Both the position numbers and the translations under genes were made by a program. A stretch of DNA of 64,000 bases from Candidatus Aminicenantes bacterium (GTDB lineage Bacteria; Acidobacteriota; Aminicenantia; Aminicenantales; JAFGBC01): contig OY969696.1 in the NCBI GenBank assembly GCA_963702005.1, positions 2,816,001-2,880,000 of the forward strand, read 5' to 3'. Each line of letters opens with the position of its first letter. Positions within the stretch are counted from its first letter, which is position 1. Below, piece after piece: positions 1 to 44,544 of this stretch. Below the pieces are notes generated by a model. That model was not told where the DNA came from, ran no database searches, and worked only from the letters and a program-made list of their open reading frames with translations.

Positions 1-497
1 GCATAGCGAGGCTTCCGGCGGCGCTTCCGGGCCGCCCGGGCCAACCGGACGTTCAGAGGTTCGACCAGGACGCCGCGCGCCTTGAGCCGCTTTAAAACCC
101 GGCCCACCGTCGATGTCGAGACCTGGATCCCCTCTCGCCGTAACAGAACCACCAGCTTGTCCTTGCCCCAACGGGGATATTGATTCCTGAGTTTCAAGAT
201 GCGGTCAGCCACCGGCGCGGGGGTCAGCGGCGTTCGGACATGGATCGGCCGCCGGCTCTCCGCCTCCAGGGTCGTTAAGTCATAGGGGTCGATGCGCCGC
301 CGCCAGCGGTAGAACGTCTGGGGCGAGATCCCGAAGTAACGGCAGGTCCGGCGGGCGTTCCGGCATTGCCGGTAATACTCGAACCAGCGCAGCCGCTTGG
401 CGGCCTCCGCAGAGATCGTCCCCTGACGGACCAGGGACCGAATGTACTCAGAGCCAGGAATAATGGATCCATAGGTCGTGGCCGGCTTCATATACAT
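1..497 (-). CDS. IS481-family transposase, N-terminal part (runs off the window start)
   Basis: Manual translation from ATG at 497: MYMKPATTYGS...KRLRWFEYYRQCRNARRTCRYFGISPQTFYRWRRR...SRRP...ILKLRNQYPRWGKDKL...STSTVGRVLKR. This is the HTH pattern typical of IS481/rve transposases. It is absent from the ORF track because it has no stop in the window. Confidence 0.85.
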   Translation of the reverse strand, partial: MYMKPATTYGSIIPGSEYIRSLVRQGTISAEAAKRLRWFEYYRQCRNARRTCRYFGISPQTFYRWRRRIDPYDLTTLEAESRRPIHVRTPLTPAPVADRILKLRNQYPRWGKDKLVVLLRREGIQVSTSTVGRVLKRLKARGVLVEPLNVRLARAARKRRRKPRY

Positions 498-548
498 GGC
501 GACTCCTATCATAGCCCATAGTGTCACCTATGTATCTGAACGAGTACA
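1..548 (-). mobile_element. IS481-family insertion sequence, left end
   Basis: The minus strand from 548 reads TGTACTCGTTCAGATACATAGGTGACACT. A 5'-TGT end with an internal GACAC motif is typical of IS481 inverted repeats, and it lies 51 bp upstream of the transposase ATG. Confidence 0.8.
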
Positions 549-655
549 CCCCTCGACTTCCCGGCATGAATACCTGGGGCTTATTCGGGGTTAACCCTGA
601 GCCGAGCTTCTTGTCCCCGCCTTTCAAGGCGGGGTAACGTCGGCGAACGGGTCAA
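549..655. repeat. Hairpin-rich MITE or IS200/IS605-end-like remnant
   Basis: Stacked palindromes TCGGGGTTAACCCTGA (585-600) and CCCCGCCTT-TC-AAGGCGGGG (615-634), ending in GGGTCAA at 655. Confidence 0.45.
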
Positions 656-744
656 CCGGATTTCCATTTGACATCGTAATTTTATCTGTGTCAATATGAA
701 GGCACTGTAGACCGGTACGATCCCCTTTTGAGGAGGGAGGATCC

Positions 745-8616: not shown

Positions 8617-9897
8617 ATGAAAGAGTACACACTCCTCGAGCTCGAAGAAAAAGAACTGACCCAGCTGACCAAGGTCGCCGCGGGGCTCGGCCTGAGCGAG
8701 GAAGATATCAAAGAGGCGTCCAAGCACAACCTTACTTTCAAAATTCTCGAGGCCCAAGCCAAAAAGCAGGGCTTGCTTTTTTCCGAAGGCGTCTTGGAAT
8801 GCCTCGAGGACGGGTTCGGTTTCCTGCGGGCGCCCGAGTTCAGCTATCTGCCCAGTCAGGATGACATCTATGTCTCGCCCTCCCAGATCCGCAAGTTCCA
8901 GCTGCGGACCGGCGACACGATCTCGGGCCACGTCCGGCCCCCCAAGAACGGCGAGAAGTACTTCGCCTTGATCAAGATCGAGGCCATCAATTTCCTCCAT
9001 CCCGACGCCGTCATCGAGCAGCGGCGCAACGTCCAGTTCGAGCAGCTGACGCCGCTTTACCCGCACGAAAAGATCAAGCTCCAGGACGGGAATCCCAAGA
9101 ACCTGAACGCCCGGATCATGGAGCTCCTGACGCCGATCGGCAAGGGGCAGCGCGGCCTGATCGTCTCGCCGCCCCGGGCCGGCAAGACGACCCTCCTCAA
9201 AACGATCGCCAAGTCGATCGAGAAAAACCACCCCGAAATCTACCTGATCGTGCTCCTGGTCGCCGAGCGGCCCGAGGAAGTCACGGACTTCAAGCGGAGC
9301 GTCAACGGGGAGGTCGTCGCCTCAACCTTCGACGAGCCCCCGGTCCGGAACGTCCAGGTCGCCAACATCGTCCTCGAAAAGGCCAAGAGGCTGGTCGAGC
9401 TTAAGCGCGACGTGACCATCCTCCTCGACAGCATCACCCGCCTGGCCCGCGCCCACAACTCGGTCATCCCGCCCTCGGGCAAGGTCCTGTCGGGCGGCAT
9501 CGACGCCAACGCCCTCAACAAGCCCAAGAAATTTTTCGGCTCGGCCCGCAAGGTCGAGGAGGGCGGCAGCCTGACCATCATGGCGACGGCCCTGGTCGAC
9601 ACCGGGAGCCGGATGGATGAGGTCATTTTTGAAGAGTTCAAGGGCACCGGCAATATGGAGATCAACCTCGACCGGCGCCTGGTCGACAAGCGACTCTTCC
9701 CGGCCATCGACATCACCCGGTCGGGAACCCGCAAGGAAGAGCTCCTGATCGAGGAGGTCGACCTGAACCGGATCTGGATCCTCCGCAAGGTTCTGGCTTC
9801 GCTCGGCGAGGTCGAGGCCATGGAGCTCCTTCAGGAGAAAATAGGCAAGACCAAGACCAACACCGATTTCCTTAACGCCATGAGCAAGGGGCTTTGA
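8617..9897 (+). CDS. rho: Transcription termination factor Rho
   Basis: [26 protein letters not shown] and EEFKGTGN. Confidence 0.97.
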
Positions 9898-35905: not shown

Positions 35906-36288
35906 GAGGACGGCCCCAGAAGCCGGGAGACGATTTCGCGATCGGCCTCCGCGAGGTCGAATCGCCACAGATCCCCGGGCCGGACCCAGCGGATCTCATC
36001 ATGGGAACGAAGCTTGAATTCGCCCGTCCGGTGCTCGACTTCGAAGGCGAGAAGTTCGAAGGGGCCCTCTCGAAAAACGCCCCGGCCGGTGGCGGCCAGC
36101 GGCCCCACCCGGACTTCGATATCGAACTCTTCTCTAAGCTCCCGCTCCAGGCATGTCTCCGGCGTTTCGCCCGGTTCGACCTTTCCCCCCGGGAATTCCC
36201 AGAGGCCCGCGCTCGAGATCCCGGCCTTCCGGCGAGCGATCAAGATCATCCCGTTTCTTCTGAAGAGGGCCGCCGTGACCTGCATCAT
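35902..36288 (-). CDS. NUDIX hydrolase, MutT/NudG-like
   Basis: WEFPGGKVEPGETPETCLERELREEF Nudix box, found at the C-terminal end of track ORF 35902..38208. Confidence 0.88.
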   Translation of the reverse strand: MMQVTAALFRRNGMILIARRKAGISSAGLWEFPGGKVEPGETPETCLERELREEFDIEVRVGPLAATGRGVFREGPFELLAFEVEHRTGEFKLRSHDEIRWVRPGDLWRFDLAEADREIVSRLLGPSS

Positions 36289-36396: not shown

Positions 36397-39300
36397 ATGG
36401 GGGACGGAGGACGGCTTCAGGTCTGCTCGAGCTGCCGGGCGGAGAATCCCGACGACAGCCGCTTCTGTCGCCAATGCGGCGCGCCGCTCCCCCACCCTCA
36501 TGAGACGCTCCCCTATCCCGTTTCCTCCGCTGAAGCGCACACGACGGCCGCCCCGGCCGCCGCGCCCCACTTCGCCCCCGGCGCCGCCTTCGGCAAGCGC
36601 TACCGGATTATCGAGGAGATTGGAAGCGGCGGCATGGGCCGCGTCTACAAGGCCGAGGACAAAGAGCTGGGGACGACGGTCGCCCTCAAGATGATCCGCC
36701 CCGAGCTCTCCGCCGACCGCGACGTCATCGACCTTTTCAAGAAAGAAATCATCCTGGCCCGCTCCATCTCGCACGAAAACGTCGTCCGCATCCACGACCT
36801 GGGCGAAATCGGCCGGGTCAAATACGTTTCGATGGACTTCATCAAAGGCGAAGACCTGAAGTCCCTGATCCGGCTCTCGGGGCCCCTCTCCGTGGACACG
36901 ACCCTCCAGATCGCGATCCAGGTCGGAGAAGCGCTCCGGGCCGCCCACCGCAAGAACATCGTCCACCAAGACCTCAAGCCCCAGAATATCATGATCGATC
37001 CGGGCGGCCGGGTGTTCGTCACGGATTTCGGGCTGGCGACGCTCAGGGCCGCCGACGGGGCCGCGGGACCGGCGGATGTGGTCGGAACGCCCTTCTACTT
37101 CTCGCCCGAACAGGCCCGGGGCGCGCCCGCCGATCCCCGGTCGGACATCTATTCGTTCGGCGTCGTCGTCTTCGAGATGCTGACCGGACGGGAGCCCTTC
37201 CGGGCCGCTACCGCCGCCGAACTCGCCCGCAAACACGTATCGGAGCCCCCGCCGCTTCCCTCCCGCTTCAATCCCGCCGTGCCGGCGGCCCTGGAGAAGA
37301 TCGTCCTCAAATGCCTGGCTAAAAAGCGGGAGGATCGCTATCAATCCTTCGACGAGATTCTGGCCGATCTTAAAAGGCTCGAGCCCGCCGGACGGGGCAG
37401 GGCGGCGCGGCGCTACGGCGGGAGACTCCTCTGGCTCCTGCCCTCGACTTTGGCGCTCCTGTTTCTGGCCGTCGTCGCCGTCAAGACTTTTCTCCCCAAA
37501 ACGGAGCGCCCCGCCGAGTCCGCTCTCCGCTCGCCCCTTAAGAGGATCTCGGTCGCCGTCCTCGACGCCGTCAACCACACCGGAGATCCTTCGCTGGACT
37601 ACTGGCGGGGGATGATCGAGGACCTGCTGTCCATCGACCTGGCCCAATCCCGCTACTTGGGCGTTCTGCCCGACGATCGGGTCAACCGGATCCTCAAGGA
37701 CATGGGCCGCCTCGACGCCAGCGAGCAAGCGACCGATGTCCTCGACCGGATCGCCGGGGAGGAAGGCGTCGAATATTTCATCCTGCCCAGTTTCGTACGG
37801 GTCGGCGACCGGTACCGGCTCAGCGTCAAAGTCCGCAAGGCAAAGGGGAGCGAGATCTTGGACACGGCTTGGGTCGACGGCCAGGACCTGCTCGTCATGG
37901 TCGACGACCTGACCCGAAAGCTCAAGACGGCCCTTCGGCTGTCCCAGTCCGAGATCGCCGCCGACTACGACCGGGAGCTGGCCCAGATCTCGACGACTTC
38001 GCTCGAAGCGCTCCGCTACTACATGGACGGCAAGCGCCTCTACCTCGACGAGAAATTCCAGGAGAGCAACGAAACCCTCGCCCGGGCGGTAGCCATCGAT
38101 CCGACCTTCGCCCTGGCCTATAAAAAAATGGCCGAGAACTACAACTACCTGGGCGACCTCAACCGAACCCGAGAGCGGATCGGCAAAGCGCTGGCGCTTC
38201 TCGATCACGTCTCGGAGCGGGAGCGCTACATGATTCAGGGATACGCCTCATATACCTTGGACGAGTCGCCGCAAAAAGCCGTCGAAAGCTATCGGCGGCT
38301 CCTCGAGTTTTATCCCAACGACGAGGAGGGGCACGTCCTGCTCGGCTCCATCTACAGGAATTCCGAACAGTGGGACGAGGCCGAACAGGAGTTCGAATAC
38401 GTGCTCGACCTTAACCCGCGGTCCGAATTGGCCATCGAGAACCTGGCCTACATCGACTCCGGGCTGGGACGATACGACAAGGCCATCGGCCTTATCCAGG
38501 CGCAACAGGCCCTCTTCCCCCGCTCCCTGCTGCTTTCCCGGCGCCTGGCTCAACTCGACACGATCACGGGTCGTCTCGATCAAGCGCGTCAAGAGATCGA
38601 TGACCTCCTCCGCACGAACCCCCAAGATTACAGTCATCTCGAACTCGAAGGGAATGTCCTTCAGCTCAAGGGCGATCTCCCGGCCGCCCGCTCCGTCTAT
38701 GAACGGCTCCGGAACGGCCGAAATCCCTCCGGCCGCTGCTTAGGACGGTTCTGGACGGCCCATCTTCTCCTCCTCCAGGGGCGTTTCCAGGAGGCCCGGA
38801 ACGAAGCCGCCTCGGGCCTGGAGGAATCGAAGAAAACCAACCAGATGCCCCAGACGATCAATTTCCGCCTTCTCCTTTCCCGTCTTGAGCTCGAGCAGAG
38901 CCATTGGGACGAGGCGGACGCCTCGGCCCGGACCGCTTATCAGACCGCCGACAAGATTCTCTACTCCCACGAAAAAAAGCAGGCCCTCCAGCTCGAGGGG
39001 CTTGCCCAGGCCGGCGCCGGCCGACTCGCTGAAGCGGAGCGGACCGCCGAGGAGCTCCGCGCCTTGCTCGACCGGACGGGCTGTCCCGCTCATTATAAAT
39101 ATTACGAGGCCCTCCGGGCCGCCATCGCGCTCAAGCGCGGCGCCGCGGCCGAAGCCGTCGGCTGGCAGGAAAAGGCGGTCGCCCGCTTATCCCAGCAGAT
39201 CGACAAATTCGATGATCAAGCTTTATTCTTCGACGGCCTGGGGCATGCCTACGAGGCGGCGGGATCGCCGGCTAAAGCCGTGGCCGTTTACGAAAAACTC

Positions 39301-39507
39301 ATCGCCCTGACGACCGGCCGACTCCGCTGGGGCGATTTATTCGCGCTGGCTTTTTATCGATCGGGCCGGCTCTACGAATCCGGGGGCGTCAAGGACAAGG
39401 CCGTCTCCGCCTATGAAAAGTTCCTGACTCTCTGGCGGCAAGCCAATGCCGGACGTCCCGAGCCCGCCGAGGCGCGGACCCGGCTCAACGCCTTGAGAGG
39501 GTCCTAG
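36397..39507 (+). CDS. Membrane Ser/Thr kinase: zinc ribbon + kinase + TM + TolB-like/TPR domain
   Basis: CSSC..CRQC, GSGGMGRVY, VALK, HQDLKPQN, DFG and SPEQ; TM segment LLWLLPSTLALLFLAVVAV; TPR array. Confidence 0.9.
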   Translation: MGDGGRLQVCSSCRAENPDDSRFCRQCGAPLPHPHETLPYPVSSAEAHTTAAPAAAPHFAPGAAFGKRYRIIEEIGSGGMGRVYKAEDKELGTTVALKMIRPELSADRDVIDLFKKEIILARSISHENVVRIHDLGEIGRVKYVSMDFIKGEDLKSLIRLSGPLSVDTTLQIAIQVGEALRAAHRKNIVHQDLKPQNIMIDPGGRVFVTDFGLATLRAADGAAGPADVVGTPFYFSPEQARGAPADPRSDIYSFGVVVFEMLTGREPFRAATAAELARKHVSEPPPLPSRFNPAVPAALEKIVLKCLAKKREDRYQSFDEILADLKRLEPAGRGRAARRYGGRLLWLLPSTLALLFLAVVAVKTFLPKTERPAESALRSPLKRISVAVLDAVNHTGDPSLDYWRGMIEDLLSIDLAQSRYLGVLPDDRVNRILKDMGRLDASEQATDVLDRIAGEEGVEYFILPSFVRVGDRYRLSVKVRKAKGSEILDTAWVDGQDLLVMVDDLTRKLKTALRLSQSEIAADYDRELAQISTTSLEALRYYMDGKRLYLDEKFQESNETLARAVAIDPTFALAYKKMAENYNYLGDLNRTRERIGKALALLDHVSERERYMIQGYASYTLDESPQKAVESYRRLLEFYPNDEEGHVLLGSIYRNSEQWDEAEQEFEYVLDLNPRSELAIENLAYIDSGLGRYDKAIGLIQAQQALFPRSLLLSRRLAQLDTITGRLDQARQEIDDLLRTNPQDYSHLELEGNVLQLKGDLPAARSVYERLRNGRNPSGRCLGRFWTAHLLLLQGRFQEARNEAASGLEESKKTNQMPQTINFRLLLSRLELEQSHWDEADASARTAYQTADKILYSHEKKQALQLEGLAQAGAGRLAEAERTAEELRALLDRTGCPAHYKYYEALRAAIALKRGAAAEAVGWQEKAVARLSQQIDKFDDQALFFDGLGHAYEAAGSPAKAVAVYEKLIALTTGRLRWGDLFALAFYRSGRLYESGGVKDKAVSAYEKFLTLWRQANAGRPEPAEARTRLNALRGS

Positions 39508-40555
39508 ACGCCAAGAATTTCTCCCGCGCCGCCCTCAACGCTTTCGCGATCCGGCAAGTCCAGCGCGGGATCCGTCCGATCTCGCTCCCCGGCGCCGCCG
39601 CATCCAAGGGACAGATCGCGCAGTCCTCGACTTCGGGACAGGTCAGGCAGGGACCGTCCGGCGTCATGAACCGCGTCATGCGGAGCGAGGCATATCGGGC
39701 CGCGACCTCGGGATGGACTCTCTGCCCTGAACGGACGAACCGCTCGACTCGACCGAAAGAATAGGAACGGGCCTCCCGGGAGGTCGACCTCCCGGGGAAA
39801 TGGTCGATGAAGAGGTGACAGCCCCAAACCGTTCCGTCCGGAGCGACGGCGATCCTGTTCGCGCCGCCGCCGCAGGCGAAAATTCCCCTCCCCCGGACCG
39901 GCCGGAATTCGGCCAGCGGAACGTGTCCCGTCTTTTTTCTCCATGCGCCGGCGAAGCGCCGGACCGCCGCCAGCTCATCCCCCAGCGCCGTTAGGGCGGC
40001 CCCGGACCAGGGCTCCAGGTTCGAGAAAGCGAGATGGATGTCTCTGACGCCGAGCTCATGAATAAGCCGCACGGAGCCGGACAAATAGCGGACGGTTTTT
40101 GGAGTGAACACGGAGTTCGTCTCGACCCGAATCTCAGGGGCGTCGACCAAGCGCTCCAGCGCGGGCAGGACCGTTGCCGTGCTCTCCTGTTCGCGGCCGA
40201 CGTGCTGGGCAAGACCGTCGAAAGACACAAGCAAGCGAAATCGGTGATCGCGGAAAAACGCGAGAATGTCATCCGTGATCAGGCTGCCGTTTGTCGTCAG
40301 CCCGAACCGGATTCGGCGGCCTCCGTTCTTATTTTCCACGGCCGCGACCGCCCGGCGGATGAGGTCGAACGCGACGAGCGGCTCTCCTCCGTAGAAATGG
40401 ATTTCGCTTCGGACGGCCAGATGGGGAAGGAAGACATCCAAGGCCCGGTCCAAGACGGCGGGCGTCATCGTCTGCCGGCCCCGAAGCTGATAGCAATAGG
40501 AACAGCGGAAATTACACCGTTCGGTCAGATAGAGCAGAAGGGTTGAGAATTCCAT
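39485..40555 (-). CDS. Radical SAM protein with SPASM domain
   Basis: CNFRCSYC, FYGGEP, TTNG and SFDG; SPASM cysteines CGGG...GC...CLTCPEVEDCAICP...C. Confidence 0.9.
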   Translation of the reverse strand: MEFSTLLLYLTERCNFRCSYCYQLRGRQTMTPAVLDRALDVFLPHLAVRSEIHFYGGEPLVAFDLIRRAVAAVENKNGGRRIRFGLTTNGSLITDDILAFFRDHRFRLLVSFDGLAQHVGREQESTATVLPALERLVDAPEIRVETNSVFTPKTVRYLSGSVRLIHELGVRDIHLAFSNLEPWSGAALTALGDELAAVRRFAGAWRKKTGHVPLAEFRPVRGRGIFACGGGANRIAVAPDGTVWGCHLFIDHFPGRSTSREARSYSFGRVERFVRSGQRVHPEVAARYASLRMTRFMTPDGPCLTCPEVEDCAICPLDAAAPGSEIGRIPRWTCRIAKALRAAREKFLASRTLSRR

Positions 40556-40711
40556 TCGGTCGCGGGGCGGCCGCGGCGGCCCTTCCAACGGAAATACTAA
40601 GCCGGGCGGAATATAGTTGACTCCATATTTCTTTATCGCCCGGCTAGTACTCGGGGAGCGGCAAGGATTATGCAAAATATATACTGCTCCCCGTAGTAAC
40701 TATGTTTCAGA

Positions 40712-40948
40712 TCAGCGCACGGTCCGGCGCGGCAAACTTCCCTGACACATGTCCCCGGCCTTCAGGTCGGCGAGATTGCCCACGGAATTGATAATTCCGC
40801 CGCAGGCTTTTCGCGCTTCCTTGTAAACCTTGAAGAGCGGATCGCCGGCGGGGGGCGCCTTGACTTTTTCCAGAAAAGTCGCGATGGCATCCAACCCCTT
40901 TACGAGCTCCGCCGGATAAGGATGTTCTGTGATCGGTCTTTTCGCCAT
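40712..40948 (-). CDS. Small peptide, candidate RiPP precursor 1 (78 aa)
   Basis: SD AAGGAGGG; ends KAGDMCQGSLPRRTVR; paralogous to 41007-41228. Confidence 0.7.
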   Translation of the reverse strand: MAKRPITEHPYPAELVKGLDAIATFLEKVKAPPAGDPLFKVYKEARKACGGIINSVGNLADLKAGDMCQGSLPRRTVR

Positions 40949-41006
40949 GGAAACCCTCCTTGTCTCCGATTCCTCTGGACAGGCCGCGATCAGCCCGCCT
41001 CGCCCC

Positions 41007-41228
41007 TCAGCGCCGCGGAAGTCCGGTCGGACAGGGACCGCCTTTGTCTTTACACAAGAGCTTGACGAGTACGGCGCAGGCGGCTTCCGCTTTCAATTGG
41101 AGACGGGCCAGCGCGGGCGGCAACTCGATGTGAGCGGCCTTTAGCTCGCGCAAGAACGCATCAATATCCCCTAGAAGCTGCGCGACGCTCACCCGGTCAC
41201 CCTTAGGATCGAATCTCTTGATAGGCAT
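41007..41228 (-). CDS. Small peptide, candidate RiPP precursor 2 (73 aa)
   Basis: SD AAGGAGGGG before ATG 41228; MPIKRFDPK...KGGPCPTGLPRR. Confidence 0.7.
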   Translation of the reverse strand: MPIKRFDPKGDRVSVAQLLGDIDAFLRELKAAHIELPPALARLQLKAEAACAVLVKLLCKDKGGPCPTGLPRR

Positions 41229-41352
41229 GCTCCCCTCCTTACAAGGATATCGTAGCAAAGACGGTCCTGGGAAATAAAGCGGTATTTTTCGCGTCAATCC
41301 TAAACGTTCAACCGCCTTTTTCCGTATAGGATAAGTGGGGACAAGCACGAAC

Positions 41353-42279
41353 ATGGCCGGCAGCGAACAAAACGTCGTCGAGGTCGAAAGCCTCCGAAAA
41401 AGCTACGGAACGGTGACCGCCGTCGCCGGCATATCTTTCGCTGTCCGGCGGGGCGAAATCTTCGGGCTGGTCGGCCCCAACGGCGCCGGCAAGACGACGA
41501 CCGTCGAATGCCTGGAGGGACTCCGGCGTCCCGACGACGGCCGGGTCCGCCTTCTCGGCTGCGATCCTCAGCGCGAGGGCCGCAGCCTCAGGGAGCGGCT
41601 CGGCATCCAACTCCAGGAATCGGAACTCCAGGCCCGGATCAAGGTCTGGGAGGCTTTGGACCTCTACGCTTCTTTTTACAGCCGGTCCATCGACTGGCGA
41701 CCTCTCATCGCCCAACTCGGGCTCGGGGACAAGGCCGAAACGCCGTTCGCCAAATTATCGGGCGGGCAGAAGCAGAGGCTGTTCGTGGCCCTGGCCCTCG
41801 TCAACGACCCCGACCTCGTTTTCCTCGACGAGCTGACGACCGGGCTCGACCCCCAGGCCCGGCGCACGATCTGGGACCTCGTCCGTTCGGTCCGGGACAG
41901 GGGGAAAACGGTCGTCCTGACAACCCACTTCATGGAAGAAGCGGAACGGCTCTGCGACCGCGTCGCGATCATGGATCGAGGCGGCCTGGTCGCCCTGGAC
42001 ACACCGGAAAACCTCATCCGCGGCCTGAACGCCGAAAACAGGGTCGTGTTCGTCCCCGATCCGGGCTTCGAGGCGCGGCTCCTCGAGTCCTGCCCGGGCG
42101 TCACACGGATCGAGGCGTCGGCCGGACGGGTCATCGTCTACGGCCACGGCGAGCGGCTCGTCGCCGACGTCGTGGATTTCATCATCGCCAAGGGCTTCCG
42201 GTTCCGGGACTTAAGGACCGAGCAGGCTTCGCTCGAGGACGTCTTCCTGGCCCTGACCGGCCGCGAGATCAGGGAATGA
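41353..42279 (+). CDS. ABC-2 exporter ATP-binding subunit
   Basis: GPNGAGKTT, LSGGQKQR, LDELTTGLD and TTH. Confidence 0.93.
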   Translation: MAGSEQNVVEVESLRKSYGTVTAVAGISFAVRRGEIFGLVGPNGAGKTTTVECLEGLRRPDDGRVRLLGCDPQREGRSLRERLGIQLQESELQARIKVWEALDLYASFYSRSIDWRPLIAQLGLGDKAETPFAKLSGGQKQRLFVALALVNDPDLVFLDELTTGLDPQARRTIWDLVRSVRDRGKTVVLTTHFMEEAERLCDRVAIMDRGGLVALDTPENLIRGLNAENRVVFVPDPGFEARLLESCPGVTRIEASAGRVIVYGHGERLVADVVDFIIAKGFRFRDLRTEQASLEDVFLALTGREIRE

Positions 42280-42292
42280 GGAGAGCGCGGAT

Positions 42293-43036
42293 ATGCGCGG
42301 ACTCTGGAAGCTGACCTGGACCGAGATCAAGCTGTTCCTCCGCGAACCCTATTCGACCTTTTTCACCCTGGCTTTCCCGCTCATGCTCCTCTTCCTGTTC
42401 GGGTCCATCTACGGCAACAAACCGACGCCCTTCTTCAACGGACACGGCTCGGTGGACGTCCTCCTGCCCTGCTACGCCGCGCTCCTCATCGGGAACTCCG
42501 GGCTTCTCTCGATGACTATCTACATGGCCGTTTACCGGGAGAGGGGCGTCCTGCGCCGCCTCCACGCCACCCCCCTCAAGCCCCTGACCGTGCTGGGCGC
42601 CCAAGTCCTGGTCGTTTTTCTGATGTGCACGCTGGGCCTCGGCCTCCTCATCGCCGCCGCCAAGCTCGTCTACGGCTTGAAGTTCGCGGGCGACCCGCTT
42701 TCCGTCCTGGGCGCCTACATCTTGAGCTGCCTCGGTATTTTCGCGCTGGGGTTCGTCCTGGCCAGCGTCCTGCCCACGGCCCGGACCGCCCAGGCCGTCG
42801 CCATGGCCCTGTTCTATCCGATGATGTTCCTGTCCGGAGCGGCCATGCCCAAGGAAATCCTCCCGCTGACGATCCGGCGCGTCGCTCGCTTCCTTCCCCT
42901 GACCCACGTCGTCGATCTTCTGCGCGGATTGTGGCTGGGGGACGTGTGGAGCCGGCACCTGACCGAAGTCGCGGCCCTGGCCGGTTTGTTCGTCGTCTGC
43001 GTCGCCGTCTCCCTCAAGACTTTTCGCTGGGAATAG
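42293..43036 (+). CDS. ABC-2 exporter permease
   Basis: Six TM segments, RERGVLRRL and PLTH. Confidence 0.9.
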   Translation: MRGLWKLTWTEIKLFLREPYSTFFTLAFPLMLLFLFGSIYGNKPTPFFNGHGSVDVLLPCYAALLIGNSGLLSMTIYMAVYRERGVLRRLHATPLKPLTVLGAQVLVVFLMCTLGLGLLIAAAKLVYGLKFAGDPLSVLGAYILSCLGIFALGFVLASVLPTARTAQAVAMALFYPMMFLSGAAMPKEILPLTIRRVARFLPLTHVVDLLRGLWLGDVWSRHLTEVAALAGLFVVCVAVSLKTFRWE

Positions 43037-43089
43037 GCGGCCGCTGCCCTGTTCGGGTTTCGTCCCTCATGTGCTACAATAGCCGGACC

Positions 43090-44544
43090 ATGAATCTGTC
43101 CATCGCGTTCCTCGCCTCCGAAGTCGCCCCCTTCGCCAAGACCGGCGGCCTGGCCGATGTGGCCGGGGCTCTCCCCCGCGCCCTGGCCGGAGCCGGAACC
43201 TCCGTCCGCGTCCTGATGCCTTTCTACCGCGAGGTCAAGAAGAAGAATCTTCCCGTCCGGAAACTCTTCGAGGACTCGATCTCGGACGGCATGGGCCGTT
43301 CCCTTCCTTACGCCGTCCATGAGCTCGACGAGGCGGGCGTTTCAACCCTTTTCATCGAGCACGACGCCTTTTTCGACCGCGAATTCCTCTACGGAACTCC
43401 GGCCGGCGATTATCCCGACAACGGGGAAAGGTTCGCGTTCTTCGCGCGCGCCGCCCTCGAAACACTGGCTAAAACGGGCAAGGCCGTCGACATCGTCCAC
43501 GCCCACGACTGGCAGTCCGCCCCTGCCCTCGCCTATCTTAAATTCAGGTACGCCGAAGACTCGTTTTTCGACCGGACCCGGACCGTATTCACCATCCACA
43601 ACCTGGCTTATCAGGGCCGGTTCGAAAAAGATATTTTAGGCAGAATTGGGCTTCCCGACAGCCTGTTCAACATGAACGACCTCGAGTTCTACGGAAAGGT
43701 CAACTTCCTCAAGGCCGGGATCCTCTACGCGGACGCCGTGACCACGGTCAGCCCCCGCTACAGCCGGGAGATCCAAACGCCCGAGTTCGGCTGCGGCCTG
43801 GACGGGCTCCTCCGTCAGCGGAGCGGCGTCCTCCACGGCATCCTCAACGGCGTCGATTATGCCGCCTGGGACCCCGCCCGCGACGCCCTCATCCCGGCCC
43901 GCTATGGCCAGGCCGACCTAGCGGGAAAAGCCGTCTGCAAAAAGGAGCTCATCCGGATGTTCGGCCTTCCGACCGCCGCGGCCGGTCGTCCCGTCGTCGG
44001 CGTCGTCTCCCGGCTGGCCGGACAGAAGGGGTTCGACCTCGTCGCGGACGCCCTCGACGAAATGTTCAAGCGGGACTTCGTGCTGATCGTCCTGGGCACG
44101 GGCGAGGACAAGATCCAGGAAGCCCTGAAGGCCGCTCAAAAAGCCCATCCCGACCGGTTCGGGCTGAGGATCGCCTTCGACGAGAAGATCGCCCACACCA
44201 TCTACGCCGGGAGCGATATCTTCCTCATCCCATCCCGGTACGAGCCTTGCGGGCTGACCCAGATGTACAGCCTCAAGTACGGAACCATTCCCGTCGTCCG
44301 AGCCACCGGCGGCCTCGACGATACGATCCGGGAGTTTGACTCCGCGGCCCGGACCGGAAACGGGTTCAAGTTTGAAGCCTACGAGGAAGCGGCGCTGCTC
44401 GCTTGCCTGGACCGAGCCCTCGCTCAATGGAAAAATAAAAACGTCTGGAGCGTCCTGGTACGAAACGCGATGGCCGAGGATTTCTCCTGGGGGCGTTCCG
44501 CCCAGGCTTATCTCGACCTGTATCGGTCCGTAGCGAACGGTTGA
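43090..44544 (+). CDS. glgA: Glycogen synthase
   Basis: KTGGLADV, HAHDWQ, TIHNLAYQG, SRYEPCGLTQ and TGGL. Confidence 0.95.
   Translation: MNLSIAFLASEVAPFAKTGGLADVAGALPRALAGAGTSVRVLMPFYREVKKKNLPVRKLFEDSISDGMGRSLPYAVHELDEAGVSTLFIEHDAFFDREFLYGTPAGDYPDNGERFAFFARAALETLAKTGKAVDIVHAHDWQSAPALAYLKFRYAEDSFFDRTRTVFTIHNLAYQGRFEKDILGRIGLPDSLFNMNDLEFYGKVNFLKAGILYADAVTTVSPRYSREIQTPEFGCGLDGLLRQRSGVLHGILNGVDYAAWDPARDALIPARYGQADLAGKAVCKKELIRMFGLPTAAAGRPVVGVVSRLAGQKGFDLVADALDEMFKRDFVLIVLGTGEDKIQEALKAAQKAHPDRFGLRIAFDEKIAHTIYAGSDIFLIPSRYEPCGLTQMYSLKYGTIPVVRATGGLDDTIREFDSAARTGNGFKFEAYEEAALLACLDRALAQWKNKNVWSVLVRNAMAEDFSWGRSAQAYLDLYRSVANG

Follow-up and report, generated by a model that had tools for sequence, protein, structure and literature searches.

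Two small C-x3-LPRR peptides beside a radical SAM/SPASM enzyme and a membrane kinase-TPR protein: a candidate peptide-modification system in Aminicenantes

What does a radical S-adenosylmethionine (rSAM) enzyme act upon when its gene is preceded by two small open reading frames (ORFs) that end in the same Cys-x3-Leu-Pro-Arg-Arg (C-x3-LPRR) tail? This question is raised by a 64,000-nucleotide stretch of the genome of a Candidatus Aminicenantes bacterium (contig OY969696.1, positions 2,816,001 to 2,880,000), here called the window. The answer we favor, with somewhat more confidence than doubt, is a variant of the rSAM/SPASM type of ribosomally made, post-translationally modified peptide (RiPP) system, probably thioether-forming and coupled to a periplasmic tetratricopeptide repeat (TPR) sensor. 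The three genes at the center of this reading are as follows (lengths in amino acids [aa]).

41007-41228 (-): putative precursor peptide B, 73 aa, ending in KGGPCPTGLPRR and then stop; core Cys66-PTG-LPRR at 41010-41033
40712-40948 (-): putative precursor peptide A, 78 aa, with the tail KAGDMCQGSLPRRTVR; core Cys68-x3-LPRR-TVR at 40715-40747
39485-40555 (-): radical SAM/SPASM peptide maturase, 356 aa, with no N-terminal RiPP recognition element (RRE)

Are the two small ORFs genes? Each has an AAGGAGG-type Shine-Dalgarno sequence 6 to 8 nt 5' of its ATG. The ORF listing bore out what a preliminary description of the locus had given for their coordinates, shared orientation, Shine-Dalgarno sequences, and place upstream of the rSAM gene, and the common C-x3-LPRR tail is present in both. 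LPRR abuts the stop codon in peptide B and is followed by three residues (TVR) in peptide A. Within the predicted leaders, peptide A carries an invariant Cys49 (40802-40804) and peptide B a conserved Cys51. The structural model of peptide A has helices at residues 13-28 and 37-57 (predicted local distance difference test score [pLDDT], 75 to 82) and a disordered tail at residues 59-78, a predicted shape of helical-hairpin leader plus core. Four homologs of peptide A were found, each exactly 78 aa long and with 71 to 85% identity. In another genome of the same genus (G503), a 77-aa B-like peptide (...GPCPTELPRR) is followed by a 78-aa A-like peptide, the rSAM gene, and a convergent kinase gene; there too the kinase and rSAM genes overlap by 23 bp and a divergent ABC ATPase gene is present. 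Between the window species and G503, synonymous codon changes at conserved residues number 14 in peptide A and 18 in peptide B, the frames are kept, and the difference in peptide length preserves the frame.

Neighboring C-x3-LPRR peptides had been expected at close relatives of the enzyme, and they were seen both in G503 and in a 2,434-base metagenome contig that covers the rSAM gene plus both peptide genes. When 339 genomes of the class were searched with a profile, the family turned up beyond the source genome in G503 only; a family-profile match in genome G452 (E = 0.008) was dropped because it is a frame lying antisense within the gene for an ATP synthase. As had been supposed, neither peptide could be assigned to a known family: no curated match was found for peptide A or B in Pfam or NCBIfam. 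The Protein Atlas gave no usable match for peptide A and matched the rSAM enzyme to generic rSAM clusters only. An Rfam scan of 39000-43500 returned no match. No extra copies of peptide A were found in the source genome. Two weak matches to peptide B (E = 0.06 and 0.2) were rejected as extra copies; the stronger of them (L003) lies amid overlapping open frames with no rSAM gene nearby.

Is the shared tail more than a coincidence? C...LPRR occurs 17 times in the source genome (72,346 six-frame ORFs, 6.94 million residues), and only the copies in peptides A and B are adjacent, co-oriented, and no more than 3 residues from the ORF end. A profile search with a peptide alignment (A1) against 1.84 billion representative proteins returned seven matches at E <= 0.001: the two peptides themselves, P0127 (101 aa, E = 1.1e-5), P0131 (103 aa, E = 6.8e-4), and three long proteins (P0128-P0130, 378 to 601 aa, each matched over several short stretches) that were set aside unfetched as probable low-complexity matches. 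Both P0127 and P0131 carry two cores per chain, ...C-[DL]-G-[GE]-LPRR... and then ...CPTGLPRR.... Since a single chain of these proteins bears the two core types together, C-x3-LPRR is a repeated core unit; A-type and B-type cores are fused elsewhere and split over two genes in the window. The preliminary description had called the two peptides paralogous, and this stands insofar as the two-core homologs link them; direct pairwise similarity does not. In an eight-sequence alignment (A3), residues I22, F25, L38, Cys49, Cys68, L72, P73, R74, and R75 are invariant (8/8).

The adjacent enzyme matches PF04055 (E = 1.2e-15) and has ten cysteines in total, all at invariant or nearly invariant columns among 30 homologs. 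Cys14, Cys18, and Cys21 form the CX3CX2C motif; the other seven (228, 246, 303, 306, 312, 315, and 334) follow a SPASM-type spacing in G241-x4-C246, C303-x2-C306-x5-C312-x2-C315, and C334. The Pfam SPASM model gave no match at E <= 0.01. Scores against NCBIfam families were as follows.

PapB (NF047865): 123.7 bits, cutoff 340
CcpM: 95.6 bits, cutoff 500
Nif11 maturase: 95.2 bits, cutoff 518.7
QhpD: 84 bits, cutoff 453
SCIFF maturase (TIGR03974): 78.9 bits, cutoff 425
anSME (TIGR03942): 52.5 bits, cutoff 349.45

Among PDB sequences, the enzyme matched, in order, CteB (E = 2.9e-30, from CteB residue 98), TigE, ChlB, and anSME. Its AlphaFold model (pLDDT 89) matched the folds of CteB (TMq 0.75) and anSME (4k36; TMq 0.74) over the full length. 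The radical SAM/SPASM identity proposed earlier thus agrees with the CX3CX2C motif, the seven further cysteines, and top matches to thioether maturases. The suspected lack of an N-terminal RRE was likewise upheld by the CteB alignment, in which the window protein opens at the rSAM core. An N-terminal RRE is common, though not universal, on such maturases. By these comparisons, we class the enzyme among the rSAM/SPASM peptide maturases, as one that has no RRE at its N-terminus. A complex prediction that combined the rSAM alignment, three 4Fe-4S clusters, SAM, and the peptide A alignment gave a median score of 0.22, relative to a mark of 0.32, and was weighed neither for nor against the proposal below.

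Does this pairing of enzyme and small peptide recur? At least 622 rSAM homologs were found, and 26 of 401 sampled genomes of the phylum encode one at E <= 1e-30. Loci were taken from genomes and metagenomes and the small ORFs beside the rSAM gene were listed; 4 of 52 loci were without upstream sequence, which left 48 assessable. With a candidate precursor defined as a protein of 53 to 165 aa that has a helix resembling a leader and, close to its end, a Cys, one was judged by eye to be present beside distant rSAM homologs (33 to 46% identity) at 39 of these 48 loci. The remaining nine (L037, L048, L059, L061, L063, L115, L123, L135, and L162) had no precursor or an ambiguous one. Most candidates are encoded upstream on the same strand as the rSAM gene; the peptide gene of L043 lies downstream, and five phylum-genome loci (L009, L012, L016, L019, and L022) encode the peptide divergently. 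Across 55 peptides, the last Cys lies 7 to 22 residues (median, 10) from the C-terminus, and the consensus is G-x-x-C-P-G-G-x-P-[IR]-[IR], which the window cores fit. Some peptides of this superfamily bear 2 to 6 tandem cores. At L119, an ORF at 184-705(+) upstream of an rSAM homolog (41% identity) encodes six tandem GCEGGKPVIK cores with spacers of ~8 residues; this peptide is a clear multi-core RiPP-type precursor of the same superfamily.

When 45 superfamily peptides were scanned, no curated Pfam or NCBIfam family scored above noise. A hidden Markov model (HMM) built from 47 foreign peptides ranked peptide B second of 66,374 small ORFs in the source genome, and the top foreign matches of the LPRR-family HMM were rSAM-adjacent peptides (best E, 0.008). 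Statistical support for membership of the window peptides in the larger superfamily is modest. The earlier suggestion of a new peptide family holds in the sense that no curated family matched, but the window system forms only a small branch within an uncurated superfamily that is far larger.

What else is inherited with the peptides and their enzyme? The gene that converges on the rSAM gene is as follows.

36397-39507 (+): membrane Ser/Thr kinase with zinc ribbon, transmembrane (TM) segment, and TPRs; the ORF opens at 36001 (1,168 aa)

Homologs of this kinase align only from residue 129-142 on, so the start is likely M133 (36397). In the kinase ORF, Pfam identified Zn_Ribbon, Pkinase (E = 1.6e-47), and numerous families of TPRs; the sole hydrophobic segment (TM, residues 476-494) lies between the kinase domain and the TPR-rich part, and the C-terminal sensor region of ~670 aa consists of an alpha/beta domain plus TPRs. 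The 3' ends of the kinase and rSAM genes, at 39507 and 39485, converge with the 23-bp overlap originally reported. Running Pfam on 123 ORFs of 22 long loci, we found a Ser/Thr kinase-TPR gene (about 1,020 to 1,105 aa) convergent on the rSAM gene at half of the loci (11/22: L038, L044, L116, L117, L118, L120, L121, L124, L127, L130, and L133), and two further loci (L047 and L125) have a convergent TPR ORF cut by the locus end. These rSAM-adjacent kinases match the window kinase over the full length with 36 to 44% identity (574 to 838 bits), and 10 of the 11 have one hydrophobic segment after the kinase domain. Seven full-length kinase paralogs of the source genome show only 30 to 34% identity (422 to 526 bits) to the window kinase. 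Judged by these alignments, the window kinase is a co-inherited ortholog and not a chance neighbor. The own-genome paralogs lie at 3861760-3871351, 1068790-1076024, 1195302-1198472, and 3996984-4000223 and include a tandem trio and a tandem pair. None adjoins an rSAM homolog, because the rSAM search found only two of these in the source genome (those of the window and L031).

Other peptide subfamilies have other sensor proteins as neighbors. In the 67-aa 'VTPNVKKCL' subfamily, a TM-TPR protein of ~600 to 670 aa is encoded directly upstream (L045, L050, L142, and the own-genome locus L034); its N-terminus resembles a DNA-binding helix-turn-helix (HTH) by eye, and no model matched it. In the 'LKxENLKKC' subfamily (L126 and L128), the upstream gene encodes a histidine kinase of the hybrid type that also has receiver and AraC domains. 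Profile-profile comparison aligned the post-TM region of the kinases with the sensor region of the TM-TPR proteins at 99.7% probability (E = 9.9e-26); the alignment begins at the TM helix and covers 438 columns.

How could these parts work together? We propose that the ribosome makes peptides A and B as precursors with a helical-hairpin leader of ~55 to 60 residues and a C-terminal C-x3-L-P-R-R core apiece. The RRE-less rSAM/SPASM enzyme would bind the leader directly and, by SAM-derived radical chemistry aided by two auxiliary Fe-S clusters, would modify the single core Cys. Most likely, the Cys sulfur would be joined by an intramolecular thioether to a carbon of the Leu, Pro, or Arg that lies 4 to 7 positions downstream, which would close a small ring at the C-terminus. 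The product would then be exported, perhaps via a divergently encoded ABC-2 pump, and the periplasmic TPR sensor of the kinase may control or sense it. The peptide genes, the rSAM gene, and the convergent kinase-TPR gene are inherited as one module. In this account, gene order, conservation, repetition of the core, enzyme class, lack of an RRE, and orthology of the kinase are observed, whereas translation, the substrate relationship, thioether chemistry, export, and the tie to signaling are inferred.

A number of results weigh against this proposal. The acceptor residue is a guess, because the core is without the Asp/Glu acceptor of PapB-type substrates, and every NCBIfam score of the enzyme falls far under its curated cutoff. 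The kinship of the two peptides is not apparent pairwise: BLASTP of peptide A against peptide B gave no alignment at E <= 100, an HMM of five peptide-A sequences missed peptide B among 84,640 small ORFs, and an HMM of the 67-aa subfamily detected neither peptide. The HMM of 47 foreign peptides reached peptide B at an E value of 0.15 only and left peptide A outside its top 15, and the count of 39 loci with a candidate precursor was made by eye. Transporter genes were present at only 4 of the 22 loci scanned with Pfam (L050, L115, L125, and L133), and no protease was noted in these neighborhoods; leader removal and export are therefore unsupported.

Of the other explanations, the main chemical one keeps the enzyme class and changes the reaction. 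The enzyme could act like anSME, converting the core Cys to formylglycine, or could make another non-crosslinking change such as epimerization. anSME is of equal size, is also without an RRE, and provides the second-best fold match; its target Cys lies in a short Pro/Arg motif, the present cores are Pro/Arg-rich after the Cys, and one source labels many of the homologs 'sulfatase maturation enzyme AslB.' However, that name is a generic label from a single source, the C-x3-L-P-R-R spacing is incompatible with C-x-P-x-R, and the scores point the other way, with 59.6 bits for anSME versus 108.4 bits for thioether maturases in PDB and the TIGR03942 score less than half that of PapB among the families. 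We regard this explanation as unlikely. About as unlikely, in our estimate, is that the small ORF products are helical proteins that stay whole in the cell and are matured by the rSAM enzyme, for example to serve the kinase pathway as modified partners or regulators or to carry a cross-linked cofactor. The missing proteases and the rarity of transporters would fit such an intracellular role, as would the well-predicted helical-hairpin leader with its invariant Cys49 and the fact that signal-transduction proteins are the most constant neighbors; SPASM enzymes that install thioethers in proteins are reported in excerpts of PMC13692751. Against it, multiple cores within one precursor (two in P0127 and P0131, six in L119) typify RiPP products that are cleaved, and the sensor, lying past a single TM helix, should be periplasmic and therefore out of reach for a cytoplasmic peptide.

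Another alternative is that both ORFs are chance frames in GC-rich intergenic DNA and that the rSAM enzyme has some other substrate. Spurious ORFs are frequent in GC-rich genomes, and translation of the two ORFs is a prediction. Chance frames would not be expected to have strong Shine-Dalgarno sequences on both members, nor ORF lengths and a C-terminal motif kept across species amid synonymous changes; two-core homologs were found at E values down to 1e-5 among 1.84 billion proteins, and most homologous rSAM genes have the same adjacent-peptide architecture. This explanation is already largely refuted, and we give it very little credence.

A bolder reading goes a step further. The modified C-x3-LPRR peptide may be a secreted pheromone whose dedicated receptor is the periplasmic TPR sensor of the co-inherited kinase, each peptide subfamily having its own sensor type; the whole would constitute an undescribed family of cell-cell signaling systems. 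The sensor types would be the Hanks kinase-TPR, the membrane HTH-TPR, and the hybrid histidine kinase-AraC proteins, and the hosts would include Aminicenantes, other Acidobacteriota, and Omnitrophota. We offer this step tentatively, as a doubtful extension of the biosynthetic reading.

On the other side of the peptide genes, the window encodes a transporter in the divergent direction.

41335-42279 (+), likely from ATG 41353: ABC transporter ATPase, DrrA-like (ABC_tran, E = 2.4e-28)
42293-43036 (+): ABC-2 type permease (ABC2_membrane, E = 1.1e-27)

The ATPase scored 249 bits against TIGR01188 (drrA), under the cutoff of 312, and the permease is a possible exporter or immunity pump. The divergent ABC-2 exporter described earlier is indeed present at the locus; among the loci examined, it adjoins the module only in this genus. 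At the edge of the cluster, 3' of the permease gene, a glycogen/starch synthase-like ORF (MNLSIAFLASEVAPFAKTGGLADV...) at 42625-44544(+) was identified by eye.

Where does the rSAM protein begin? The listed ORF is longer than the one given above, running over 39485-40675(-) with a TTG start at 40675 (396 aa). Between it and peptide A lies an inserted element.

40595-40699 (no strand assigned): 105-bp dispersed repeat, between peptide A and the rSAM gene

Since TTG 40675 falls within this inserted repeat, which creates it, the 396-aa start is false and the start is most likely ATG 40555; rSAM homologs are about 351 to 367 aa long. Contigs of three runs skip 102 bases at the repeat site (40594 to 40697), so that a related strain is without the repeat. 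The genome has nine copies of the repeat including that of the window, the other eight at 90 to 98% identity, and in contigs from wetland metagenomes it is covered to a depth of as much as about 2000. Its predicted fold consists of two hairpins (-44.6 kcal/mol; z, -5.6), and no Rfam family matches it. The repeat is not part of the peptide system.

The source genome also holds a second peptide-rSAM module, outside the window (L034, 5405-11443). It comprises a 593-aa TM-TPR protein (N-terminus HTH-like by eye), a 67-aa peptide ending in ...GRNCPGGTMIIR, and an rSAM gene broken at a run of nine Ts (T9); a GH38 alpha-mannosidase-like gene (984 aa) follows the module. The T9 site of L034 lies at about 9300-9340(-) (G000:C1 near 3,624,300). 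Among loci of the 67-aa 'VTPNVKKCL' subfamily, 12 of 17 have T9 at one codon position of the rSAM gene, after ...FF (L034, L007, L013, L041, L042, L045, L050, L054, L055, L057, L132, and L142); in L006, a T8 flanked by substitutions leaves the gene in frame, and four other loci are without such a run. In the T9 genes, frame 0 encodes CX3CX2C and the -1 frame encodes GGEP. Because the DNA on either side of the run is diverged and the GC fraction of the loci spans 0.34 to 0.64, the run is not a sequencing artifact. The rSAM protein would be restored if the mRNA gained one U or if the ribosome slipped by -1, and the site looks like programmed recoding (slippage or -1 frameshifting) or a phase-variable maturase switch. 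Excerpts of PMC1088944 describe a non-templated nucleotide inserted at a run of Us in Shigella mxiE; slippage at T9 that adds one U would parallel this case. The sister subfamily would thus add a site of recoding, T9, that is conserved within the gene of a biosynthetic enzyme.

How does the window system compare with those already known? No description of it was found in the literature, although supplementary cluster lists could include the enzyme group, and the main text of PMC10288494 does not mention Acidobacteria, Aminicenantes, or a kinase. It is a ranthipeptide/sactipeptide-like system, yet below every curated family threshold tested. rSAM/SPASM peptide maturases are a main source of new peptide chemistry, and this branch combines an enzyme that has no RRE with a leader in the form of a long helical hairpin and a minimal core containing one Cys; it would provide a compact pair of enzyme and substrate for the chemistry of thioethers or other Cys modifications. 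Since its constant, co-inherited neighbors are sensor and signaling proteins, and not proteases or exporters, it would also be a testable case for modified-peptide signaling in largely uncultured phyla.

Among thioether-forming enzymes, CteB, the thermocellin maturase (5wgg/5why), is an rSAM/SPASM enzyme and the closest structure by both sequence and fold. Identity is ~20%, and CteB has ~95 extra N-terminal residues, which we take to be the RRE leader-binding domain. The anSME enzyme (4k36) shares the length class, the lack of an RRE, and the SPASM fold, and it too targets one Cys within a short motif of Pro and Arg. That motif is C/S-x-P/A-x-R, of unlike spacing, and anSME substrates are sulfatases, not small leader-core peptides; its family model reaches just over 50 bits. 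For SCIFF, the maturase score is below cutoff and the peptides match no NCBIfam model. PapB with its substrate PapA (freyrasin) is the top-scoring curated family for the window enzyme. According to excerpts of PMC12373016, PapB is a SPASM enzyme that joins a Cys sulfur to a carbon a few residues downstream in short repeated motifs, those of PapA being Cys-x3-Asp/Glu with the acceptor carbon beside the carboxylate. The window differs in having Leu at position +4 and no conserved acidic acceptor, with a score far under the PapB cutoff; PapA also has six cores, relative to one or two here.

On the signaling side, residues 477-828 of the kinase match TIGR04510 (peptide modification system cyclase; E = 3.6e-46, 158.1 bits), under its cutoff of 400, and the kinase domain matches TIGR03903 (TOMM system kinase/cyclase fusion; 134 bits, cutoff 706). 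Both families, like the window, place a signaling domain with a TPR-rich region beside peptide-modification genes; here, the partner is an rSAM/SPASM enzyme and a Hanks kinase provides the output, with an HTH or a hybrid histidine kinase in its place in the sister subfamilies. TPR domains also serve as peptide receptors in quorum sensing by the RRNPP family, where they are cytoplasmic, and rSAM-modified peptides such as streptide, which is under quorum-sensing control, are tied to cell-cell signaling; SuiB, the streptide enzyme (5v1t), is among the fold matches of the window rSAM protein. Unlike the RRNPP receptors, the TPR region of the window kinase follows a TM helix, is predicted to be periplasmic, and is fused to a Ser/Thr kinase.

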